A stretch of DNA of 64,000 bases from Escherichia coli. GTDB lineage: Bacteria > Pseudomonadota > Gammaproteobacteria > Enterobacterales > Enterobacteriaceae. The notes below the pieces were generated by a model. It searched no databases. It saw nothing but the letters and a program-made list of their open reading frames with translations, and had not been told where the DNA came from. The translations under genes were made by a program, and so were the position numbers. The stretch lies in assembly GCF_044324875.1 (NCBI RefSeq), contig NZ_CP172185.1. One strand, 5' to 3'. This document shows, one piece after another, positions 1,579 through 49,341 of this stretch. How positions within the stretch are numbered: position 1 is the stretch's first letter; every line of letters starts with the position of its first letter.

Positions 1579-1850
<272 letters not shown>

Positions 1851-15811: not shown

Positions 15812-15876
15812 AGAATAAAAAACCGGAAATAGTCACTATTTCCGGTTCCGATATCCGCAGCGCAAAGCTGCGGATG
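15812..15876 (-). terminator. pta terminator region (two hairpins, one with T-tract)
   Basis: Minus-strand hairpins ccgcagc-tttgc-gctgcgg and aaccggaaatagtgactatttccggtt followed by tttttt, directly downstream of the pta stop. Confidence 0.7.
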
Positions 15877-15885
15877 ATGACGAGA

Positions 15886-18030
15886 TTACTGCTGCTGTGC
15901 AGACTGAATCGCAGTCAGCGCGATGGTGTAGACGATATCGTCAACCAGTGCGCCACGGGACAGGTCGTTAACCGGCTTGCGCATACCCTGCAGCATCGGC
16001 CCGATGGAGATCAGGTCGGCAGAACGCTGTACCGCTTTGTAGGTGGTGTTACCGGTGTTCAGATCCGGGAAGATGAACACGGTAGCGCGACCTGCAACCG
16101 GAGAGTTCGGCGCTTTGGATTTCGCAACGTCAGCCATTACCGCAGCGTCGTACTGCAGCGGACCGTCGATCATCAGGTCAGGACGTTTTTCCTGCGCCAG
16201 ACGAGTTGCTTCGCGAACTTTTTCTACGTCGCTACCAGCACCAGAAGTCCCGGTGGAGTAGGAGAGCATAGCAACGCGCGGTTCGATACCGAAGGCCGCA
16301 GCGGAATCAGCGGACTGAATCGCGATTTCTGCCAGCTGTTCTGCGGTCGGATCCGGGTTGATCGCACAGTCACCGTAAACGTAAACCTGTTCCGGCAGCA
16401 GCATGAAGAACACGGAAGATACCAGGGAGCTGCCCGGTGCAGTTTTGATCAGCTGCAGCGGCGGACGGATGGTGTTTGCGGTGGTGTGAACAGCACCGGA
16501 AACCAGACCATCAACTTCATCCTGTTCCAGCATCAGCGTACCGAGAACCACGTTGTCTTCCAGCTGTTCGCGGGCAACGGTTTCGGTCATGCCTTTGTTC
16601 TTACGCAGTTCGACCAGACGACCAACATAGCTTTCGCGAACCACTTCTGGATCAACGATTTCAATGCCTGCACCCAGTTCTACACCCTGAGACGCTGCAA
16701 CACGGTTGATCTCTGCCGGATTACCCAGCAGTACGCAAGTTGCGATACCACGTTCAGCACAGATAGCGGCTGCTTTAACGGTACGCGGTTCGTCACCTTC
16801 CGGCAGAACGATACGTTTGCCCGCTTTGCGCGCAAGTTCGGTCAGCTGATAACGGAACGCTGGCGGAGACAGACGACGGCTGCGCTCAGAAGTGGCAGTC
16901 AGAGAATCGATCCAGTCAGCGTTGATGTAGTTAGCAACGTATTCCTGAACTTTCTCGATACGCTCGTGATCGTCAACCGGAACTTCCAGGTTGAAGCTCT
17001 GCAGGCTCAGAGAAGTCTGCCAGGTGTTGGTGTTCACCATAAATACCGGCAGGCCGGTAGCGAAAGCACGTTCGCACAGTTTAGAAATGCGCGCGTCCAT
17101 TTCGTAGCCGCCAGTCAGCAGCAGGGCACCGATTTCTACGCCGTTCATGGCTGCCAGGCACGCGGCAACCAGCACGTCAGGGCGGTCTGCGGAAGTCACC
17201 AGCAGAGAACCGGCACGGAAGTGCTCCAGCATGTGCGGAATGCTGCGTGCGCAGAAAGTGACGGATTTAACGCGGCGAGTATTGATGTCGCCTTCGTTGA
17301 TGATGGTCGCATTCAGGTGGCGAGCCATATCGATCGCACGAGTCGCGATCAGGTCAAAGCTCCACGGCACAGCGCCGAGAACCGGCAGCGGGCTGGATTC
17401 TTGCAGCTTCGCCGGATCAACATTGTTTACTTTAGCTTTGGAAGAGTCGTCGAAAATCTCGGACAGATCCGGGCGAGTACGACCCTGTTCATCAACCGGT
17501 GCGTTCAGTTTGTTAACGATAACGCCGGTGATGTTGGTGTTTTTGGCACCGCCGAAGCTGTTGCGGGTCAGTTCGATACGCTCTTTCAGCTGTTCCGGGG
17601 TGTCAGTGCCCTGAGACATAACGAAGACGATTTCCGCATTCAGCGTTTTAGCGATTTCGTAGTTCAGAGACTGGGCAAACTGGTGCTTACGTGTCGGGAC
17701 CAGACCTTCAACCAGAACGACTTCAGCGTCTTTGGTGTTAGCGTGGTAGTTTGCGACGATCTCTTCCATCAGCACATCTTTCTGATTGCTGGAAAGCAGA
17801 CCTTCAACGTAGCTCATTTTCAGCGGTTCAGCGGCCGTCGTGGTGGAAGAGTTCGCACGCACGATAGTGGTAGTCTGATCGGGCGCATCGCCACCGGTAC
17901 GCGGCTGAGCGATAGGTTTGAAAACGCTCAGACGAACGCCTTTGCGTTCCATTGCACGGATCACGCCAAGGCTGACGCTGGTCAGACCGACGCTGGTTCC
18001 GGTAGGGATCAGCATAATAATACGGGACAC
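15886..18030 (-). CDS. pta: phosphate acetyltransferase
   Basis: 714 aa with N-terminal [28 protein letters not shown] and C-terminal PTA domain. Confidence 0.97.
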
Positions 18031-18104
18031 GGTTTATCCTCTTTCGTTACCGCCGATTTGGCGGGTTACAAAACAGCACCGCCAGCTTAGCTGGCGGTGT
18101 GAAA

Positions 18105-26132: not shown

Positions 26133-27074
<942 letters not shown>

Positions 27075-27127
27075 TCGACGGACCATAGATAATTTCTGAG
27101 ACAATAGTGTAAAAACGAGCCGCTGGG

Positions 27128-27167
27128 GGTGTTTTAAACCCCAGCGGCTTTTTTTTAGTAAAAAGCC
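27128..27167 (+). terminator. rho-independent terminator after lrhA
   Basis: gccgctggggg-tgttttaaa-ccccagcggc followed by tttttttt. Confidence 0.8.
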
Positions 27168-27703
27168 TTCCTCGTATCGTGCAGAACGTACAAAACTGTT
27201 CATTTTTCAATCACCAGAGATTCACGTCCCGAACGCACAAATAATCGCCTGAAAAAAATCACCTGCTACAATGATGTTAAAAAATACGTAAATTTGTTGC
27301 TGCGTTTTTGTTATGGAATGACAAAAGCGTGTCACAGATCAAGAAAATACTCTCTTTTGGGGGGAGGAATCGACACAAATTCCTGTCAAAATAGACCCGT
27401 ATTTTTTCCATTGCTTCACAACGGACACGATTCAACAACATCTAATTATCCTGGAGTCGTCAAGGATCTGGGGTGAAAGGGCATTAAATGCTAATGGTGT
27501 TGATATTATGTAAACTAATGTGAAGAAACTTTTGTTAAAGTTGACAAAAGGTTATAGAAAGGAGTAAAAGACCACATCAATTAGCTGTATAAAAGAATTT
27601 CTACAGTGATTGTAAGGTTTTTTTTATTCCTCCCCATGAATCGATGTGGCGTCCATCTGCCGTGAAGAGCAGTGAATCTGGCGCTACTTTTGATGAGTAA
27701 GCA

Positions 27704-28147
27704 ATGAGTATGTCAACATCCACTGAAGTCATCGCTCATCACTGGGCATTCGCTATCTTTCTTATCGTTGCCATTGGCCTGTGTTGCCTGATGCTGGTAG
27801 GCGGTTGGTTTTTAGGCGGTCGCGCACGCGCAAGGTCGAAAAACGTTCCGTTTGAATCCGGTATCGACTCGGTCGGCTCCGCCCGCTTACGCCTGTCCGC
27901 CAAGTTTTATCTGGTGGCCATGTTCTTCGTTATCTTCGACGTTGAAGCGCTGTATCTGTTCGCATGGTCAACCTCTATCCGCGAAAGCGGCTGGGTAGGC
28001 TTTGTGGAAGCTGCAATTTTTATTTTTGTGTTACTGGCAGGTCTGGTTTATCTGGTGCGTATTGGCGCGCTGGACTGGACGCCCGCGCGTTCACGCCGCG
28101 AGCGTATGAACCCGGAAACGAACAGTATCGCTAATCGTCAACGCTAA
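27704..28147 (+). CDS. nuoA: NADH-quinone oxidoreductase subunit A
   Basis: 147 aa membrane subunit, first gene of a 13-gene cluster in canonical nuo order. Confidence 0.95.
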
Positions 28148-28162
28148 CCGCGAGGCATTAAG

Positions 28163-28825
28163 ATGGATTATACGCTCACCCGCATAGATCCCAACGGTGA
28201 GAACGACCGTTACCCCCTGCAAAAGCAGGAGATCGTAACCGACCCTCTGGAGCAAGAAGTTAACAAAAACGTGTTTATGGGCAAGCTCAATGACATGGTT
28301 AACTGGGGTCGTAAAAACTCAATTTGGCCGTATAACTTCGGTCTTTCCTGCTGTTACGTTGAGATGGTGACTTCGTTTACCGCGGTGCATGACGTGGCGC
28401 GTTTTGGCGCAGAAGTATTGCGTGCTTCGCCGCGTCAGGCTGACCTGATGGTCGTTGCAGGAACCTGCTTTACCAAAATGGCACCGGTTATTCAGCGTCT
28501 GTATGACCAGATGTTGGAACCAAAATGGGTTATCTCAATGGGTGCCTGTGCCAACTCCGGCGGTATGTACGATATTTATTCCGTTGTGCAGGGCGTCGAT
28601 AAATTCATCCCGGTTGATGTGTATATCCCGGGCTGCCCTCCGCGTCCTGAAGCGTACATGCAGGCACTGATGCTGTTGCAGGAATCTATCGGTAAAGAAC
28701 GTCGTCCGCTCTCCTGGGTGGTTGGCGATCAGGGCGTTTATCGCGCCAACATGCAATCAGAGCGCGAACGCAAGCGCGGTGAACGCATTGCCGTAACCAA
28801 CCTGCGTACACCTGACGAGATTTAA
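28163..28825 (+). CDS. nuoB: NADH-quinone oxidoreductase subunit B
   Basis: 220 aa; N2 Fe-S cluster cysteines ([18 protein letters not shown]). Confidence 0.95.
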
Positions 28826-28918
28826 TTTGCGCCTGTCGGCAAAGGGATTTTTCTTCGCTTATTCCTAAATCTATTTCGCGAAGCTTACTGCGCCGACAGT
28901 CACCACGGACCATTTGCA

Positions 28919-30721
28919 ATGGTGAACAATATGACCGACTTAACCGCGCAAGAACCCGCCTGGCAGACCCGCGATCATCTTGATGATCCGGTGATTGGCG
29001 AACTGCGCAACCGTTTTGGGCCGGATGCCTTTACTGTTCAGGCGACTCGCACCGGGGTTCCCGTTGTGTGGATCAAGCGTGAACAATTACTGGAAGTGGG
29101 CGATTTCTTAAAGAAACTGCCGAAACCTTACGTCATGCTGTTTGACTTACACGGCATGGACGAACGTCTGCGCACACACCGCGAAGGGTTACCTGCCGCG
29201 GATTTTTCCGTTTTCTACCATCTGATTTCTATCGATCGTAACCGCGACATCATGCTGAAGGTGGCGCTGGCAGAAAACGACCTGCACGTACCGACCTTCA
29301 CCAAACTGTTCCCGAACGCTAACTGGTATGAGCGTGAAACCTGGGATCTGTTTGGCATTACTTTCGACGGTCACCCGAACCTGCGCCGCATCATGATGCC
29401 GCAAACCTGGAAAGGTCACCCGCTGCGTAAAGATTATCCGGCGCGCGCTACCGAATTCTCGCCGTTTGAGCTGACCAAAGCCAAACAGGACCTGGAGATG
29501 GAAGCCCTGACCTTCAAACCGGAAGAGTGGGGGATGAAGCGCGGCACCGAAAACGAGGACTTCATGTTCCTCAACCTCGGCCCGAACCACCCGTCGGCGC
29601 ACGGGGCTTTCCGTATCGTTTTGCAGCTCGATGGCGAAGAGATTGTCGACTGCGTACCAGACATCGGCTACCACCACCGTGGTGCGGAGAAAATGGGCGA
29701 GCGCCAGTCCTGGCATAGCTACATTCCGTATACCGACCGTATCGAATACCTCGGCGGCTGCGTTAACGAAATGCCTTACGTGCTGGCTGTAGAGAAACTG
29801 GCCGGGATCACCGTGCCGGATCGCGTTAACGTCATTCGCGTAATGCTTTCTGAGCTGTTCCGCATCAACAGCCATCTGCTGTATATCTCCACCTTTATTC
29901 AGGACGTCGGCGCGATGACGCCAGTGTTCTTCGCCTTTACCGATCGTCAGAAAATTTACGATCTGGTGGAAGCAATCACTGGTTTTCGTATGCACCCGGC
30001 GTGGTTCCGTATTGGCGGCGTAGCGCACGACCTGCCGCGTGGCTGGGATCGCCTGCTGCGTGAGTTCCTCGACTGGATGCCGAAACGTCTGGCGTCTTAC
30101 GAGAAAGCGGCGCTGCAAAACACCATTCTGAAAGGTCGTTCCCAGGGCGTTGCCGCCTATGGCGCGAAAGAGGCGCTGGAGTGGGGCACCACCGGCGCGG
30201 GCCTGCGTGCTACCGGGATCGACTTCGACGTGCGTAAGGCGCGTCCGTATTCTGGCTATGAAAACTTCGACTTTGAAATTCCGGTGGGCGGTGGTGTTTC
30301 TGACTGCTACACCCGCGTAATGCTGAAAGTAGAAGAGTTGCGCCAGAGTCTGCGCATTCTTGAGCAGTGCCTCAACAACATGCCGGAAGGCCCGTTCAAA
30401 GCGGATCACCCGCTGACCACGCCGCCGCCGAAAGAGCGCACGCTGCAACATATCGAAACCCTGATCACCCACTTCCTGCAAGTGTCGTGGGGTCCGGTGA
30501 TGCCTGCCAATGAATCCTTCCAGATGATTGAGGCGACCAAAGGGATCAACAGTTACTACCTGACCAGCGACGGTAGCACCATGAGTTATCGCACCCGTAT
30601 CCGCACGCCGAGTTATGCGCATTTGCAGCAAATTCCGGCGGCGATCCGCGGCAGCCTGGTGTCTGACCTGATTGTTTATCTGGGCAGTATCGATTTTGTT
30701 ATGTCAGATGTGGACCGCTAA
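28919..30721 (+). CDS. nuoC: NADH-quinone oxidoreductase subunit C/D (fused)
   Basis: 600 aa single ORF covering the 30 kDa (C) and 49 kDa (D) subunit homologues. Confidence 0.95.
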
Positions 30722-30723
30722 TT

Positions 30724-31224
30724 ATGCACGAGAATCAACAACCACAAACCGAGGCTTTTGAGCTGAGTGCGGCAGAGCGTGAAGCGATTGAGCACGAGAT
30801 GCACCACTACGAAGACCCGCGTGCGGCGTCCATTGAAGCGCTGAAAATCGTTCAGAAGCAGCGTGGCTGGGTGCCGGATGGCGCGATCCACGCGATCGCC
30901 GATGTGCTGGGTATTCCGGCGAGCGACGTCGAAGGCGTGGCAACGTTCTACAGCCAGATCTTCCGCCAGCCGGTTGGCCGCCATGTGATCCGTTATTGCG
31001 ACAGCGTGGTCTGTCATATCAACGGTTATCAGGGTATTCAGGCGGCGCTCGAGAAAAAGCTGAACATCAAACCAGGGCAAACGACATTTGATGGCCGCTT
31101 TACGCTGCTGCCAACTTGCTGCCTGGGGAACTGTGATAAAGGGCCAAACATGATGATCGATGAGGACACTCACGCGCATCTGACCCCGGAAGCGATCCCT
31201 GAACTGCTGGAGCGGTATAAATGA
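30724..31224 (+). CDS. nuoE: NADH-quinone oxidoreductase subunit E
   Basis: 166 aa thioredoxin-like 2Fe-2S subunit. Confidence 0.95.
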
Positions 31225-32558
31225 AAAACATTATCCGTACTCCCGAAACGCATCCGCTGACCTGGCGTCTGCGCGATGACAAACAGCCAGTGTGGCTGGA
31301 CGAATACCGCAGCAAAAACGGTTACGAAGGGGCGCGTAAGGCGCTGACCGGGCTGTCTCCGGACGAAATCGTTAATCAGGTAAAAGACGCTGGTCTGAAA
31401 GGGCGCGGCGGCGCGGGCTTTTCGACTGGCCTGAAGTGGAGCCTGATGCCGAAAGACGAATCCATGAACATCCGTTACCTGCTGTGTAACGCCGATGAAA
31501 TGGAACCGGGCACCTATAAAGACCGCCTGTTGATGGAGCAACTGCCGCACCTGCTGGTGGAAGGTATGCTTATCTCCGCGTTTGCGCTGAAAGCTTACCG
31601 TGGCTACATCTTCCTGCGTGGCGAATATATTGAAGCGGCAGTGAATCTGCGCCGCGCCATTGCCGAAGCGACTGAAGCGGGCTTGCTTGGCAAAAACATT
31701 ATGGGAACAGGTTTCGACTTCGAACTGTTCGTCCATACCGGTGCAGGGCGCTACATCTGCGGGGAAGAAACAGCGTTAATCAACTCCCTGGAAGGGCGTC
31801 GTGCTAACCCACGCTCGAAACCCCCCTTCCCGGCAACCTCCGGCGTATGGGGCAAACCGACCTGTGTCAATAACGTCGAAACCCTGTGTAACGTTCCGGC
31901 GATCCTTGCTAACGGCGTGGAGTGGTATCAGAACATCTCGAAAAGTAAAGATGCTGGCACCAAGCTGATGGGCTTCTCCGGTCGGGTGAAAAATCCGGGC
32001 CTGTGGGAACTGCCGTTCGGCACCACCGCTCGCGAGATCCTCGAAGATTACGCCGGTGGTATGCGTGACGGTCTGAAATTCAAAGCCTGGCAGCCAGGCG
32101 GTGCGGGTACTGACTTCCTGACTGAAGCGCACCTTGACCTGCCGATGGAATTCGAAAGTATCGGTAAAGCGGGAAGCCGTCTGGGTACGGCGCTGGCGAT
32201 GGCGGTTGACCATGAGATCAACATGGTGTCGCTGGTGCGTAACCTGGAAGAGTTTTTCGCCCGTGAGTCCTGTGGCTGGTGTACGCCGTGCCGCGACGGT
32301 CTGCCGTGGAGCGTGAAAATTCTGCGCGCGCTGGAGCGTGGCGAAGGTCAGCCGGGCGATATCGAAACACTTGAGCAACTGTGTCGATTCTTAGGCCCGG
32401 GTAAAACTTTCTGTGCCCACGCACCTGGTGCAGTGGAGCCGTTACAGAGCGCCATCAAATATTTCCGCGAAGAATTTGAGGCGGGAATCAAACAGCCGTT
32501 CAGCAATACCCATTTGATTAATGGGATTCAGCCGAACCTGCTGAAAGAGCGCTGGTAA
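31221..32558 (+). CDS. nuoF: NADH-quinone oxidoreductase subunit F
   Basis: 445 aa NADH/FMN-binding subunit ([10 protein letters not shown] motif); ATGA overlap with nuoE. Confidence 0.95.
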
Positions 32559-32610
32559 CCGAATTTCGATTAACGCTCAGTCTCTGACTGAGAAAACTGG
32601 AAGCATGCTA

Positions 32611-35337
32611 ATGGCTACAATTCATGTAGACGGCAAAGAATACGAGGTCAACGGAGCGGACAACCTGCTGGAAGCTTGTCTGTCTCTGGGCCTTGATATT
32701 CCTTACTTTTGCTGGCATCCGGCGCTGGGAAGCGTCGGTGCTTGCCGCCAGTGTGCGGTGAAGCAATACCAAAACGCGGAAGACACGCGTGGTCGCCTGG
32801 TGATGTCCTGTATGACACCGGCTTCCGATGGCACCTTTATTTCCATTGACGATGAAGAAGCGAAACAGTTCCGTGAAAGTGTGGTCGAGTGGTTAATGAC
32901 CAACCACCCGCACGATTGTCCGGTATGTGAAGAAGGCGGTAACTGCCATCTTCAGGATATGACCGTGATGACCGGACACAGCTTCCGTCGCTACCGTTTC
33001 ACCAAACGTACCCACCGTAATCAGGATTTGGGGCCATTCATCTCTCACGAAATGAACCGCTGCATCGCCTGCTACCGCTGCGTGCGTTACTACAAAGATT
33101 ACGCTGACGGCACGGACCTGGGCGTTTACGGTGCACACGACAACGTCTACTTCGGTCGCCCGGAAGACGGCACGCTGGAAAGCGAATTTTCCGGTAACCT
33201 GGTCGAAATTTGCCCGACCGGCGTATTTACCGACAAAACGCACTCCGAGCGTTACAACCGTAAATGGGATATGCAGTTTGCGCCGAGCATCTGCCAGCAA
33301 TGTTCCATCGGCTGTAACATCAGCCCCGGCGAGCGTTATGGCGAACTGCGTCGAATCGAAAACCGTTACAACGGTACAGTAAACCACTACTTCCTCTGCG
33401 ACCGTGGTCGTTTCGGTTACGGTTACGTCAACCTGAAAGATCGTCCGCGTCAGCCAGTACAGCGTCGTGGCGATGATTTCATTACCCTCAATGCCGAACA
33501 GGCAATGCAGGGCGCAGCAGATATTCTGCGTCAGTCGAAGAAAGTGATCGGCATCGGTTCTCCGCGTGCCAGCGTGGAAAGCAACTTTGCGCTGCGTGAG
33601 CTGGTGGGCGAAGAAAACTTCTACACCGGTATCGCTCACGGTGAGCAGGAACGTCTGCAACTGGCGCTGAAAGTGCTGCGTGAAGGCGGCATTTATACGC
33701 CGGCACTGCGCGAAATCGAATCTTACGATGCGGTACTGGTGCTGGGCGAAGACGTTACCCAGACCGGTGCGCGCGTCGCGCTGGCAGTGCGTCAGGCGGT
33801 GAAAGGTAAAGCGCGCGAAATGGCGGCAGCACAGAAAGTGGCTGACTGGCAGATTGCGGCAATCCTCAACATCGGTCAACGTGCGAAGCATCCGCTGTTT
33901 GTTACCAACGTTGATGATACCCGTCTGGATGATATCGCGGCGTGGACTTACCGCGCACCGGTTGAAGATCAGGCGCGTTTAGGTTTTGCCATCGCCCATG
34001 CGCTGGATAACTCCGCGCCAGCGGTTGACGGAATCGAACCTGAGCTGCAAAGCAAAATCGACGTCATCGTGCAGGCTCTGGCGGGTGCGAAGAAACCGTT
34101 GATTATCTCCGGGACGAACGCTGGTAGCGCTGAAGTGATTCAGGCTGCGGCTAACGTGGCGAAAGCCCTGAAAGGTCGCGGCGCTGACGTCGGTATCACC
34201 ATGATTGCTCGCTCTGTAAACAGTATGGGGCTGGGCATTATGGGCGGTGGATCACTTGAAGAAGCGTTAACCGAACTGGAAACCGGACGCGCCGACGCGG
34301 TGGTGGTGCTGGAAAACGATCTGCATCGTCACGCTTCCGCTACCCGCGTGAATGCTGCGCTGGCGAAAGCGCCGCTGGTGATGGTGGTTGACCATCAACG
34401 CACGGCGATTATGGAAAACGCCCATCTGGTGCTTTCTGCTGCCAGCTTTGCTGAAAGCGACGGTACGGTGATCAACAACGAAGGCCGCGCCCAACGTTTC
34501 TTCCAGGTTTACGATCCGGCCTATTACGACAGCAAAACTGTCATGCTGGAAAGCTGGCGCTGGTTACACTCGCTGCACAGCACCCTGCTGAGCCGTGAAG
34601 TGGACTGGACGCAGCTCGACCATGTGATTGACGCTGTTGTGGCGAAAATCCCGGAGCTGGCAGGTATCAAAGATGCTGCGCCGGATGCGACATTCCGTAT
34701 CCGTGGACAGAAACTGGCCCGTGAACCACACCGTTACAGCGGTCGTACCGCCATGCGCGCCAACATCAGCGTTCATGAGCCGCGTCAGCCGCAGGATATT
34801 GACACCATGTTCACCTTCTCGATGGAAGGTAACAACCAGCCGACCGCGCACCGTTCGCAAGTGCCGTTTGCCTGGGCACCGGGCTGGAACTCCCCGCAGG
34901 CGTGGAACAAATTCCAGGACGAAGTGGGCGGCAAACTGCGCTTTGGCGATCCGGGCGTGCGTCTGTTTGAAACCAGCGAAAACGGTCTGGATTACTTCAC
35001 CAGCGTACCGGCACGCTTCCAGCCGCAGGACGGGAAATGGCGTATCGCGCCGTATTACCACCTGTTTGGCAGCGATGAATTGTCACAGCGTGCTCCGGTC
35101 TTCCAGAGCCGTATGCCGCAGCCGTACATCAAACTCAACCCAGCGGATGCCGCGAAGTTGGGTGTGAACGCGGGTACACGCGTCTCCTTTAGTTACGATG
35201 GCAACACGGTCACGCTGCCGGTTGAAATCGCCGAAGGGCTGACGGCAGGGCAGGTGGGCTTGCCGATGGGTATGTCCGGCATTGCTCCGGTGCTGGCGGG
35301 CGCGCATCTTGAGGATCTCAAGGAGGCACAACAATGA
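32611..35337 (+). CDS. nuoG: NADH-quinone oxidoreductase subunit G
   Basis: 908 aa from ATG at 32611 ([11 protein letters not shown]...); N-terminal 2Fe-2S and 4Fe-4S cysteine motifs; track ORF starts 6 nt earlier. Confidence 0.95.
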
Positions 35338-36311
35338 GTTGGATATCACCGGAACTGATTGAGATCCTGCTGACCATCCTCAAAGCGGTGGTGATCCTGC
35401 TGGTGGTTGTCACCTGTGGGGCATTCATGAGCTTTGGCGAACGTCGCCTGCTGGGTCTGTTCCAGAACCGTTACGGACCTAACCGTGTTGGCTGGGGCGG
35501 TTCGCTCCAGCTGGTCGCGGACATGATCAAGATGTTCTTTAAAGAAGACTGGATCCCGAAATTCTCGGATCGCGTCATCTTTACCCTGGCACCGATGATT
35601 GCCTTTACCTCGCTGCTGCTGGCCTTTGCGATTGTGCCAGTCAGCCCAGGTTGGGTGGTTGCCGACCTGAACATCGGGATTTTGTTCTTCCTGATGATGG
35701 CCGGTCTGGCGGTCTACGCGGTGCTGTTTGCGGGCTGGTCAAGTAACAACAAATACTCGCTGCTGGGTGCGATGCGTGCTTCTGCGCAGACTCTGAGCTA
35801 CGAAGTGTTCCTCGGGCTTTCCCTGATGGGCGTGGTGGCGCAGGCCGGTTCATTCAACATGACCGACATCGTTAACAGCCAGGCGCATGTGTGGAACGTC
35901 ATCCCGCAATTCTTTGGTTTTATTACCTTTGCCATCGCGGGCGTGGCGGTGTGTCACCGTCACCCGTTTGACCAGCCGGAAGCCGAGCAGGAACTGGCGG
36001 ATGGTTACCACATTGAATATTCCGGTATGAAGTTCGGTCTGTTCTTCGTGGGTGAGTACATCGGGATTGTGACCATCTCCGCATTGATGGTGACGCTGTT
36101 CTTCGGTGGCTGGCAAGGCCCGTTGTTACCGCCATTCATCTGGTTCGCGCTGAAAACCGCGTTCTTTATGATGATGTTCATTTTGATTCGTGCGTCGTTA
36201 CCGCGTCCGCGTTATGACCAGGTAATGTCCTTCGGCTGGAAAATCTGCCTGCCGCTGACGCTGATCAACTTGCTGGTAACGGCGGCTGTCATTCTCTGGC
36301 AGGCGCAATAA
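35334..36311 (+). CDS. nuoH: NADH-quinone oxidoreductase subunit H
   Basis: 325 aa polytopic membrane subunit; 4 bp overlap with nuoG. Confidence 0.95.
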
Positions 36312-36325
36312 GGGGCAATAAGACC

Positions 36326-36868
36326 ATGACCTTAAAAGAATTGTTAGTAGGTTTCGGCACCCAGGTTCGTAGTATCTGGATGATCGGCCTGCACGCGTTC
36401 GCCAAACGCGAAACGCGAATGTACCCGGAAGAGCCGGTCTATCTGCCGCCCCGTTATCGTGGTCGTATCGTTCTGACCCGCGATCCGGACGGCGAAGAGC
36501 GTTGCGTAGCCTGTAACCTCTGTGCGGTAGCCTGCCCGGTCGGCTGTATCTCGCTGCAAAAAGCAGAAACCAAAGACGGTCGCTGGTATCCGGAATTTTT
36601 CCGCATCAACTTCTCACGCTGCATTTTCTGTGGCCTGTGCGAAGAAGCCTGTCCGACCACGGCGATTCAGTTAACCCCGGATTTCGAAATGGGGGAATAC
36701 AAGCGCCAGGATCTGGTTTACGAGAAAGAGGATCTGCTGATCTCCGGTCCGGGCAAATACCCGGAATATAACTTCTACCGGATGGCAGGTATGGCAATCG
36801 ACGGCAAAGATAAGGGCGAAGCAGAGAACGAAGCCAAGCCTATCGACGTCAAGAGCCTGTTACCGTAA
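36326..36868 (+). CDS. nuoI: NADH-quinone oxidoreductase subunit I
   Basis: 180 aa; two 4Fe-4S ferredoxin motifs ([24 protein letters not shown]). Confidence 0.95.
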
Positions 36869-36879
36869 GGAGAGGGGCA

Positions 36880-37434
36880 ATGGAGTTCGCTTTTTATATC
36901 TGTGGCCTGATAGCCATACTTGCGACCTTGCGAGTGATCACCCATACCAATCCGGTACACGCACTGCTGTACCTGATTATTTCGCTGCTGGCGATCTCTG
37001 GGGTGTTCTTCTCACTGGGCGCTTACTTCGCCGGTGCGCTGGAAATTATCGTCTACGCGGGTGCCATTATGGTGCTGTTCGTGTTCGTGGTGATGATGCT
37101 CAACCTGGGCGGTTCAGAAATTGAACAGGAACGCCAGTGGCTGAAACCGCAGGTGTGGATTGGTCCGGCGATTTTGTCGGCCATCATGCTGGTGGTGATT
37201 GTTTACGCCATTCTCGGTGTTAACGATCAAGGTATCGACGGTACGCCAATCAGTGCTAAAGCAGTGGGTATTACGCTGTTCGGGCCTTACGTACTGGCGG
37301 TGGAACTGGCTTCTATGCTGCTGCTCGCGGGTCTGGTTGTGGCCTTCCACGTCGGTCGTGAAGAGCGTGCGGGTGAAGTGCTGAGCAATCGTAAAGACGA
37401 CAGCGCGAAAAGAAAAACGGAGGAGCACGCATGA
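36880..37434 (+). CDS. nuoJ: NADH-quinone oxidoreductase subunit J
   Basis: 184 aa membrane subunit. Confidence 0.95.
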
Positions 37435-37733
37435 TCCCCTTACAACATGGACTGATCCTCGCGGCAATCTTATTCGTTCTTGGCTTAACCGGTCTGGTTA
37501 TCCGTCGCAATCTGCTGTTTATGCTGATTGGTCTGGAAATCATGATTAACGCCTCCGCGCTGGCCTTTGTGGTCGCCGGAAGCTACTGGGGCCAGACCGA
37601 CGGTCAGGTGATGTACATTCTCGCCATCAGCCTCGCGGCGGCAGAAGCGAGTATCGGCCTAGCGCTGCTGCTGCAACTTCACCGTCGTCGCCAGAACCTG
37701 AACATTGATTCAGTAAGTGAGATGCGCGGATGA
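37431..37733 (+). CDS. nuoK: NADH-quinone oxidoreductase subunit K
   Basis: 100 aa membrane subunit; 4 bp overlaps with nuoJ and nuoL. Confidence 0.95.
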
Positions 37734-48045: not shown

Positions 48046-49341
48046 GTGCAATCACTTACTACGGCGCTGGAAAATCTACTGCGCCATTTGTCGCAAGAGA
48101 TTCCGGCGACACCCGGCATTCGGGTTATTGATATTCCTTTCCCTCTCAAAGACGCTTTTGATGCCTTGAGCTGGCTGGCCAGTCAGCAAACGTACCCGCA
48201 ATTCTACTGGCAACAACGTAATGGTGATGAAGAAGCTGCCGTCCTGGGTGCGATTACCCGTTTTACGTCGTTGGACCAGGCACAAACGTTTCTTCGTCAG
48301 CACCCGGAACACGCCGACTTACGCATCTGGGGGCTGAATGCGTTTGACCCGTCGCAGGGCAATTTACTTCTACCACGTCTGGAATGGCGACGTTGTGGCG
48401 GTAAAGCCACGCTGCGGCTGACGCTATTCAGCGAAAGCTCCCTTCAGCATGATGCGATTAAGGCAAAAGAATTTATCGCCACACTGGTGAGTATTAAACC
48501 CTTGCCTGGGTTACATTTAACCACCACGCGAGAACAACACTGGCCGGACAAAACGGGGTGGACGCAATTAATCGAACTGGCAACGAAAACCATCGCCGAA
48601 GGTGAGCTCGACAAAGTGGTGCTTGCTCGGGCAACTGACCTGCATTTCGCAAGTCCGGTCAATGCGGCAGCGATGATGGCTGCCAGTCGTCGGCTTAATC
48701 TGAACTGCTATCATTTTTACATGGCCTTTGATGGCGAAAATGCTTTTCTTGGCTCTTCACCGGAACGGTTATGGCGGCGGCGTGACAAAGCGCTGCGTAC
48801 TGAAGCGCTGGCGGGAACGGTAGCAAATCATCCTGATGACAAGCAGGCGCAGCAGCTAGGTGAGTGGCTGATGGCAGATGATAAAAACCAGCGCGAGAAC
48901 ATGTTGGTGGTGGAAGATATCTGCCAACGATTGCAGGCCGATACCCTGACGCTGGATGTTTTACCGCCGCAGGTACTGCGTCTGCGTAAAGTGCAGCATC
49001 TTCGCCGCTGTATCTGGACTGCACTCAACAAAGCGGATGATGTGATCTGTTTACATCAGTTGCAGCCAACGGCAGCAGTTGCTGGCTTACCGCGCGATCT
49101 GGCGCGACAGTTTATCGCCCGTCACGAACCGTTCACCCGAGAATGGTACGCCGGTTCTGCGGGCTATCTCTCATTACAACAAAGCGAATTCTGCGTTTCC
49201 CTGCGCTCAGCAAAAATCAGTGGCAATGTCGTGCGATTATATGCTGGCGCGGGCATTGTCCGTGGTTCCGACCCCGAGCAAGAGTGGCAGGAAATCGACA
49301 ACAAAGCGGCAGGGCTGCGTACTTTATTACAAATGGAATAG
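48046..49341 (+). CDS. menF: isochorismate synthase (menaquinone-specific)
   Basis: 431 aa chorismate-utilising enzyme fold; GTG start; first gene of the men cluster. Confidence 0.9.

Follow-up and report, generated by a model that had tools for sequence, protein, structure and literature searches.

The open reading frame (ORF) at positions 28919..30721 of the window, by which we mean the whole 64,000-nucleotide stretch of DNA analysed here, is almost certainly E. coli nuoCD, the gene for the fused NuoC-NuoD subunit of the proton-pumping NADH:quinone oxidoreductase (complex I, NDH-1). It is initiated by ATG and runs for 600 codons plus TAA without an internal stop. In RefSeq/PGAP this span bears the annotation 'NADH-quinone oxidoreductase subunit C/D' (WP_000247878.1), and the translation of the ORF is identical to that protein. 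As a criterion for membership among fused NuoCD proteins we used a score above the curated cut-off of the NCBIfam equivalog NF008728 ("subunit C/D") together with a full-length match. The ORF scored 1218.2 bits against a cut-off of 840, and its residues 3-600 aligned with positions 2-598 of the 598-position profile. This is the ordinary textbook nuoC-nuoD fusion, already known and nothing new: reports of it go back to the late 1990s, to judge from the citation of Braun et al. 1998 in PMC8138167, and NuoCD has been described at the atomic level (PMC8357420) and tested genetically (PMC7050243).

One reading frame with two domains in an intact operon

The gene and its neighbourhood comprise the following features:

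26136..27074: lrhA, upstream of the nuo operon
27704..42730, + strand: complete operon of 13 genes, nuoA-B-CD-E-F-G-H-I-J-K-L-M-N (from the ORF list, the RefSeq annotation and the gene junctions)
28163..28825, + strand: nuoB, a separate ORF upstream, with a 93-nt gap to nuoCD
28919..30721, + strand: nuoCD (gene symbol nuoC), longest ORF; RefSeq/PGAP annotates the same span
30724..31224, + strand: nuoE, downstream, starting 2 nt past the nuoCD stop codon

Within the frame, Pfam PF00329 (Complex1_30kDa) matches residues 50-178 (E 9e-43; 146 bits, cut-off 22.5) and PF00346 (Complex1_49kDa) matches residues 329-600 (E 2.5e-104; 349 bits, cut-off 24). The Pfam 49 kDa model spans only the C-terminal two-thirds of NuoD; TIGR01962, the full-length NuoD model, covers residues 215-600 (590 bits, cut-off 459), and the NuoC model TIGR01961 covers residues 49-176 (152 bits, cut-off 122). 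The sequence-only reading had claimed that nuoC and nuoD are fused in one 600-aa ORF and that this single frame encodes homologues of the 30 kDa and 49 kDa subunits. The uninterrupted frame bears this out, the domain search detected both Complex1_30kDa and Complex1_49kDa rather than one of them only, and E. coli is known to have this fusion (PMC8138167). In the 596-residue numbering of Kolata and Efremov (PMC8357420), the C domain comprises residues 1-172 and the D domain residues 212-596, joined by a linker of 35 residues with an alpha-helix (180-194) touching NuoB. Converting these limits to the 600-residue numbering and to window positions gives the layout below:

28931..29446, + strand: NuoC (30 kDa / Nqo5 / NDUFS3) domain, ORF residues 5-176 (PF00329; PMC8357420)
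29447..29563, + strand: C-D linker, ORF residues 177-215, outside the NuoC and NuoD models
29468-29512, + strand: linker alpha-helix contacting NuoB, ORF residues 184-198 (PMC8357420)
29564..30718, + strand: NuoD (49 kDa / Nqo4 / NDUFS2) domain, ORF residues 216-600 (TIGR01962)
29600-29602, 29747-29749 and 29903-29905, + strand: quinone-site codons for H228, Y277 and D329, each codon checked

The conserved quinone-site His, Tyr and Asp of the D domain are thus all present. Thermus Nqo4 (2fug_4), which aligns to ORF residues 213-600 (E 5e-103), pairs its quinone ligands H38 and Y87 with H228 and Y277, and the three residues correspond to H224, Y273 and D325 in the 596-residue numbering used by the Friedrich laboratory (PMC8138167). 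In the C domain, an ERETWD motif lies at residues 138-143, with E138, E140 and D143; residues of this motif have been reported to be needed for the stability of NuoCD and of other subunits (PMC7050243).

At the protein level the ORF matches chain C of PDB 7p61, the NuoCD of E. coli complex I, at all 600 residues (100% identity). Indeed, it agrees with E. coli NuoCD (NUOCD_ECOLI; b2286 nuoC; 7p61 chain C; 7awt/7nyr/7z7s chain D) in length, domain order, linker, operon position and quinone-site residues. No protein-level difference separates it from 7p61_C; over the part aligned (residues 193-600), the 596-aa chains of 7awt/7nyr show two conservative differences from it, I/V and Y/F, in ...SYRTR(I/V)RTPS(Y/F)AHL.... 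At the DNA level, positions 28600-31000 reach up to 99.6% identity to E. coli chromosomes, with the closest complete genome in the collection at no more than 99.6% for the nuoCD segment. The best-matching complete genome has an annotated CDS whose span equals that of the window ORF and differs from it at 8 nucleotides, 8 of 8 synonymous. Of 5426 complete E. coli genomes, 5423 contain the locus, each as a single copy; the matched DNA carries the annotations nuoB, nuoC ("subunit C/D") and nuoE in the records listed.

Elsewhere in the operon, mismatches against the nearest complete genome rise to 34 per kb in the nuoG region at 33600-34600 (about 1-15 per kb elsewhere), and an indel in the nuoL-nuoM spacer (39572-39736) shifts the alignment register. 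Both are probably ordinary recombination patches or intergenic variation.

nuoCD lies between nuoB and nuoE, and the gene order is collinear with the RefSeq annotation. A promoter and terminator scan of 27000-31500 against shuffles suggested no internal transcription unit at the C/D junction: promoter-like sites were fewer than in the shuffles, and terminator-like sites were only slightly more numerous (9 against 5.5 +/- 2.6). The 52-nt nuoF-nuoG spacer carries an Rfam match at 32561-32603 (+ strand) to the nuoG RNA (RF01748; 50.3 bits, gathering score 33), a known enterobacterial cis-regulatory motif. Near the start of the window are two tandem matches to the Rfam family naRNA4 (RF02564), at 1634-1704 and 1725-1795 (+ strand; 83 and 81 bits), which we take to be likely REP/BIME-type repeats. 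Directly downstream of nuoN, the segment at 42731-48100 contains yfbM, yfbL, elaD, rbn and elaA; in the matched region of some other E. coli genomes yfbK and yfbP are present as well. This segment is a strain-variable region, since only 4169 of the 5426 genomes have a match in one place to 80% or more of it, and only 3 reach 99% identity or more.

The start codon and the 5' end of nuoCD

The length of 600 aa given by the sequence-only reading holds as the longest-ORF (PGAP) length of nuoCD, but it departs from the curated K-12 MG1655 CDS b2286 (1791 nt, 596 aa) and from several solved structures, which also have 596 aa. The curated CDS begins at the second ATG of the frame:

28931..28933, + strand: second in-frame ATG (codon 5), the curated K-12 start and the basis of the numbering in most structural papers

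Both lengths have been deposited in the PDB, as 7p61_C (600 aa) and as 7awt_D (596 aa, aligning to ORF residues 5-600). The second ATG (28931) is preceded at 5 nt by a GGTGA motif, which matches the extended Shine-Dalgarno consensus in its 3' part, and no comparable motif was found upstream of the first (28919). A single position varies within CACCACGGACC.TTTGCAATGGTGAACAATATGACCGA when the window is aligned with K-12, Citrobacter freundii and Klebsiella pneumoniae, and the rest of the 93-nt nuoB-nuoCD spacer and the downstream synonymous positions are variable. Such conservation fits a putative translation-initiation region and would be compatible with either ATG. The second ATG (28931) is the most probable start of translation and gives a protein of 596 aa. 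The cryo-EM model leaves the choice of N-terminus undecided, because the modelled chain begins at residue 9 in the 596-residue numbering (PMC8357420). The two lengths therefore reflect a start-codon discrepancy between automated and curated annotation. For nuoG, the longest ORF starts at 32605 (910 aa) and the RefSeq start lies two codons later, at 32611 (908 aa).

Codon usage at the 5' end of nuoCD is uneven. All five TTA (Leu) codons of the gene fall within its first 91 codons (28919-29191), at codons 8, 57, 64, 77 and 91, where they make up 5 of the 11 Leu codons; none of the 46 Leu codons further on in nuoCD is TTA, and the sole other TTA, CTA or TCA codon is the TCA at 596. GC3 is lowest in the first 100 codons (0.58-0.60, with 0.62-0.80 elsewhere). 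Enrichment of rare codons at the 5' end of genes is a general phenomenon, and the TTA cluster could be a 5' rare-codon ramp or could be due to chance. In addition, E. coli, Citrobacter and Klebsiella hardly differ in the stretch CACCACGGACC.TTTGCAATGGTGAACAATATG, within which both candidate ATGs lie. We could speculate that the TTA cluster and this nearly invariant initiation stretch together form a programmed slow-translation ramp or a regulated start, by which the NuoC scaffold domain would fold or assemble co-translationally before the NuoD domain emerges. If true, this would be a feature specific to the fused nuoCD gene, although for a pattern recognized post hoc in one gene we consider it quite unlikely.

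The nuoB-nuoCD spacer itself (within 28826-28933) is, at 93 nt, unusually long for the tightly packed nuo operon. Its last ~20 nt and the first four codons of the gene (ATGGTGAACAAT) contain one variable position across E. coli, Citrobacter and Klebsiella. In a predicted hairpin, UCACCA...UGGUGA, the first AUG and the GGUGA motif would both be covered. The fold of the 93-nt spacer taken with the gene start is not significant (minimum free energy -28.4 kcal/mol, z -1.32, 21 of 200 shuffles as good or better), and no Rfam family matched the spacer at the gathering threshold.

The covalent link between NuoC and NuoD in complex I

The residue roles, linker contacts and split phenotype considered here come from the literature and are applied to a protein of identical sequence; the ORF, its domains, the sequence identity, the operon context and the conserved residues were established in this analysis. 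On this basis, nuoCD would be transcribed within the nuoA-N operon, and its NuoD domain would form, together with NuoB, the quinone-reduction cavity adjoining the Fe-S cluster N2 at the base of the peripheral arm. His228 and Tyr277 would hydrogen-bond and protonate the quinone head group, as described for the corresponding His and Tyr about 12 Å from cluster N2 (PMC8138167), and Asp329 would pair with the histidine. The NuoC domain, which carries no cofactor, would serve the connecting (Q) module as a scaffold for assembly and stability, and the linker of about 35-39 residues, with its one helix packed on NuoB, would tether both domains covalently. This covalent C-D link is a functional requirement in E. 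coli, because complex I activity is abolished once nuoCD is split into two genes; removal of the NuoC part likewise abolishes it (PMC7050243).

Could the fusion be an artefact of sequencing or assembly, a missed base having merged two adjacent genes? Single-base errors can fuse or split neighbouring genes, and Sinorhizobium meliloti GR4 has nuoC and nuoD in one frame with only a stop and a few codons between them, so that one substitution can toggle their state. However, 5423 of 5426 E. coli genomes, assembled independently, have this locus once, with a single C/D gene in the records listed, Citrobacter and Klebsiella also have an uninterrupted fused ORF, and the cryo-EM structures model a single chain with the linker included. 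Population-wide conservation and single-chain structures effectively refute an artefact, whose probability we regard as negligible. A fusion in the gene might still yield two proteins, by internal initiation at M193, M205 or M216 or by proteolytic cleavage. There are indeed in-frame ATGs near the domain boundary, codon 216 being one, and the paralogue HycE tolerates the physical separation of its domains (PMC7050243). Such a merely genetic fusion is nevertheless very improbable: the cryo-EM models run continuously through the linker, from residue 9 to residue 596 (PMC8357420), and an engineered strain with nuoC and nuoD split lost complex I activity completely (PMC7050243), which speaks for the importance of the covalent link. 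By analogy with 7p61 and related entries, in which the identical sequence is modelled as one chain, the product of the window ORF would be a single polypeptide in complex I.

A further possibility concerns the opposite strand, where a long ORF overlaps most of nuoCD:

29189..30631, - strand: antisense ORF of 480 aa with a TTG start

Were this a real overlapping gene, it would constrain the sequence of nuoCD, and its length is indeed unusual, as only 3 of 20000 shuffles of nuoCD among synonymous codons gave a run as long as its 504 stop-free codons in register. In this register, however, antisense stops correspond to the sense codons TTA, CTA and TCA, of which nuoCD has six only (8, 57, 64, 77, 91 and 596). 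Antisense ORFs of like length lie inside nuoL (37745..39190, 481 aa) and pta (15874..18090, 738 aa), the latter opposite a 714-aa ORF on the - strand. Moreover, a Pfam search at E <= 0.1 gave no match for the antisense ORF; in Citrobacter it falls into pieces of 175 + 255 aa and in Klebsiella into 364 + 107 aa, and Acinetobacter has no antisense ORF of at least 100 aa. We rejected it as a gene on these grounds (no Pfam match, no conservation, similar ORFs in nuoL and pta), and a genuine overlapping gene here seems to us highly doubtful. Because comparably long ones sit inside nuoL and pta, we judge the antisense ORF to be a general by-product of codon bias.

Related proteins and the spread of the fusion

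The two halves of NuoCD have homologues of the same fold and function in Thermus thermophilus (2fug/4hea) and in the mitochondrial NDUFS3 and NDUFS2. There, the two domains are two polypeptides from two genes, whereas the ORF encodes a single chain that has gained a linker of about 35-39 residues (PMC8357420); separate NuoC chains align to ORF residues ~93-180. HycE / HyfG (7z0s chain E) is a paralogous fusion with the same domain order, NuoC-like and then NuoD/[NiFe]-large-subunit-like, and the comparison of HycE with NuoCD has been drawn explicitly (PMC7050243). The similarity is only distant: 7z0s_E aligns to ORF residues 113-496 with an E of 7e-39, against 0 for NuoCD. Splitting is tolerated by HycE, which has a [NiFe] site, but not by NuoCD, which binds quinone and is free of cofactors (PMC7050243). 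The ORF has no Pfam match at E <= 0.01 to the nickel-dependent hydrogenase domain (NiFeSe_Hases, PF00374), on which ground we rejected its identity as a HycE/HyfG [NiFe]-hydrogenase large subunit. Another relative is the NuoBCD triple fusion (NF009808) of Thermodesulfobacteriota and others, whose C-D part is common to the window ORF. The ORF matches profile positions 220-791 of 791 with 710 bits against a cut-off of 1156; this identity was likewise rejected, the score being below the cut-off, the B part missing and nuoB a separate gene at 28163..28825.

The sequence-only reading had taken the fusion to be characteristic of E. coli and its relatives and to support the taxonomic assignment. E. 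coli does have it, but the fusion reaches far wider, across clade E of complex I. According to Spero et al. 2015 (PMC4453560), fused NuoCD is found in essentially all clade E complex I, a group that comprises the derived Gammaproteobacteria, Pseudomonas included, as well as horizontally acquired second isozymes in Alpha-, Beta- and Deltaproteobacteria and Bacteroidetes, and in which E. coli is named. In a 2025 bioRxiv survey, NuoD was counted as fused, either to C or to both B and C, in 1374 species, and further cases have been cited in Aquifex aeolicus (PMC1959517) and Bacteroides fragilis. The window itself has clade E traits: for NuoG, PMC4453560 gives an average of ~894 aa and the N7 motif CXXCXXXC-(X)27-C, and the window NuoG has 908 aa and the motif as C228-C231-C235, 27 residues, C263, alongside the fused NuoCD.

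We checked the spread of the fusion by tblastn of a plasmid collection, followed by ORF and Pfam checks on selected matches:

Acinetobacter baumannii (locus L006): one ORF, 595 aa, with both Pfam domains
Phocaeicola massiliensis, Bacteroidota (locus L005): one ORF, 518 aa, with both Pfam domains
Haloarcula sp. GH36, an archaeon (locus L004): one ORF, 547 aa, with both Pfam domains
Sinorhizobium meliloti GR4, pRmeGR4c (locus L003, 985-3192): two ORFs in the same frame split by a stop, with one domain each

In Sinorhizobium meliloti GR4, nuoC has 327 aa, including an N-terminal extension of ~175 residues before the 30kDa domain, and nuoD has 404 aa; one stop and a few codons separate them. Here a one-piece tblastn alignment failed as proof of fusion, having read through the stop, and the fusion was counted only at the ORF-checked loci of Haloarcula, Phocaeicola and Acinetobacter. 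With fused ORFs in these three, the fusion hardly discriminates; it is consistent with E. coli and not diagnostic of it. What supports the assignment to E. coli is the 99.6% nucleotide and 100% protein identity, not the fusion.

The case of Sinorhizobium meliloti GR4 shows how easily fused and split states can interconvert and is a trap for automated fusion calls, and a domain fusion alone is a weak taxonomic marker. As for the organism at hand, the check on nuoCD places the window in the nuo region of the E. coli chromosome, with an intact complex I operon.
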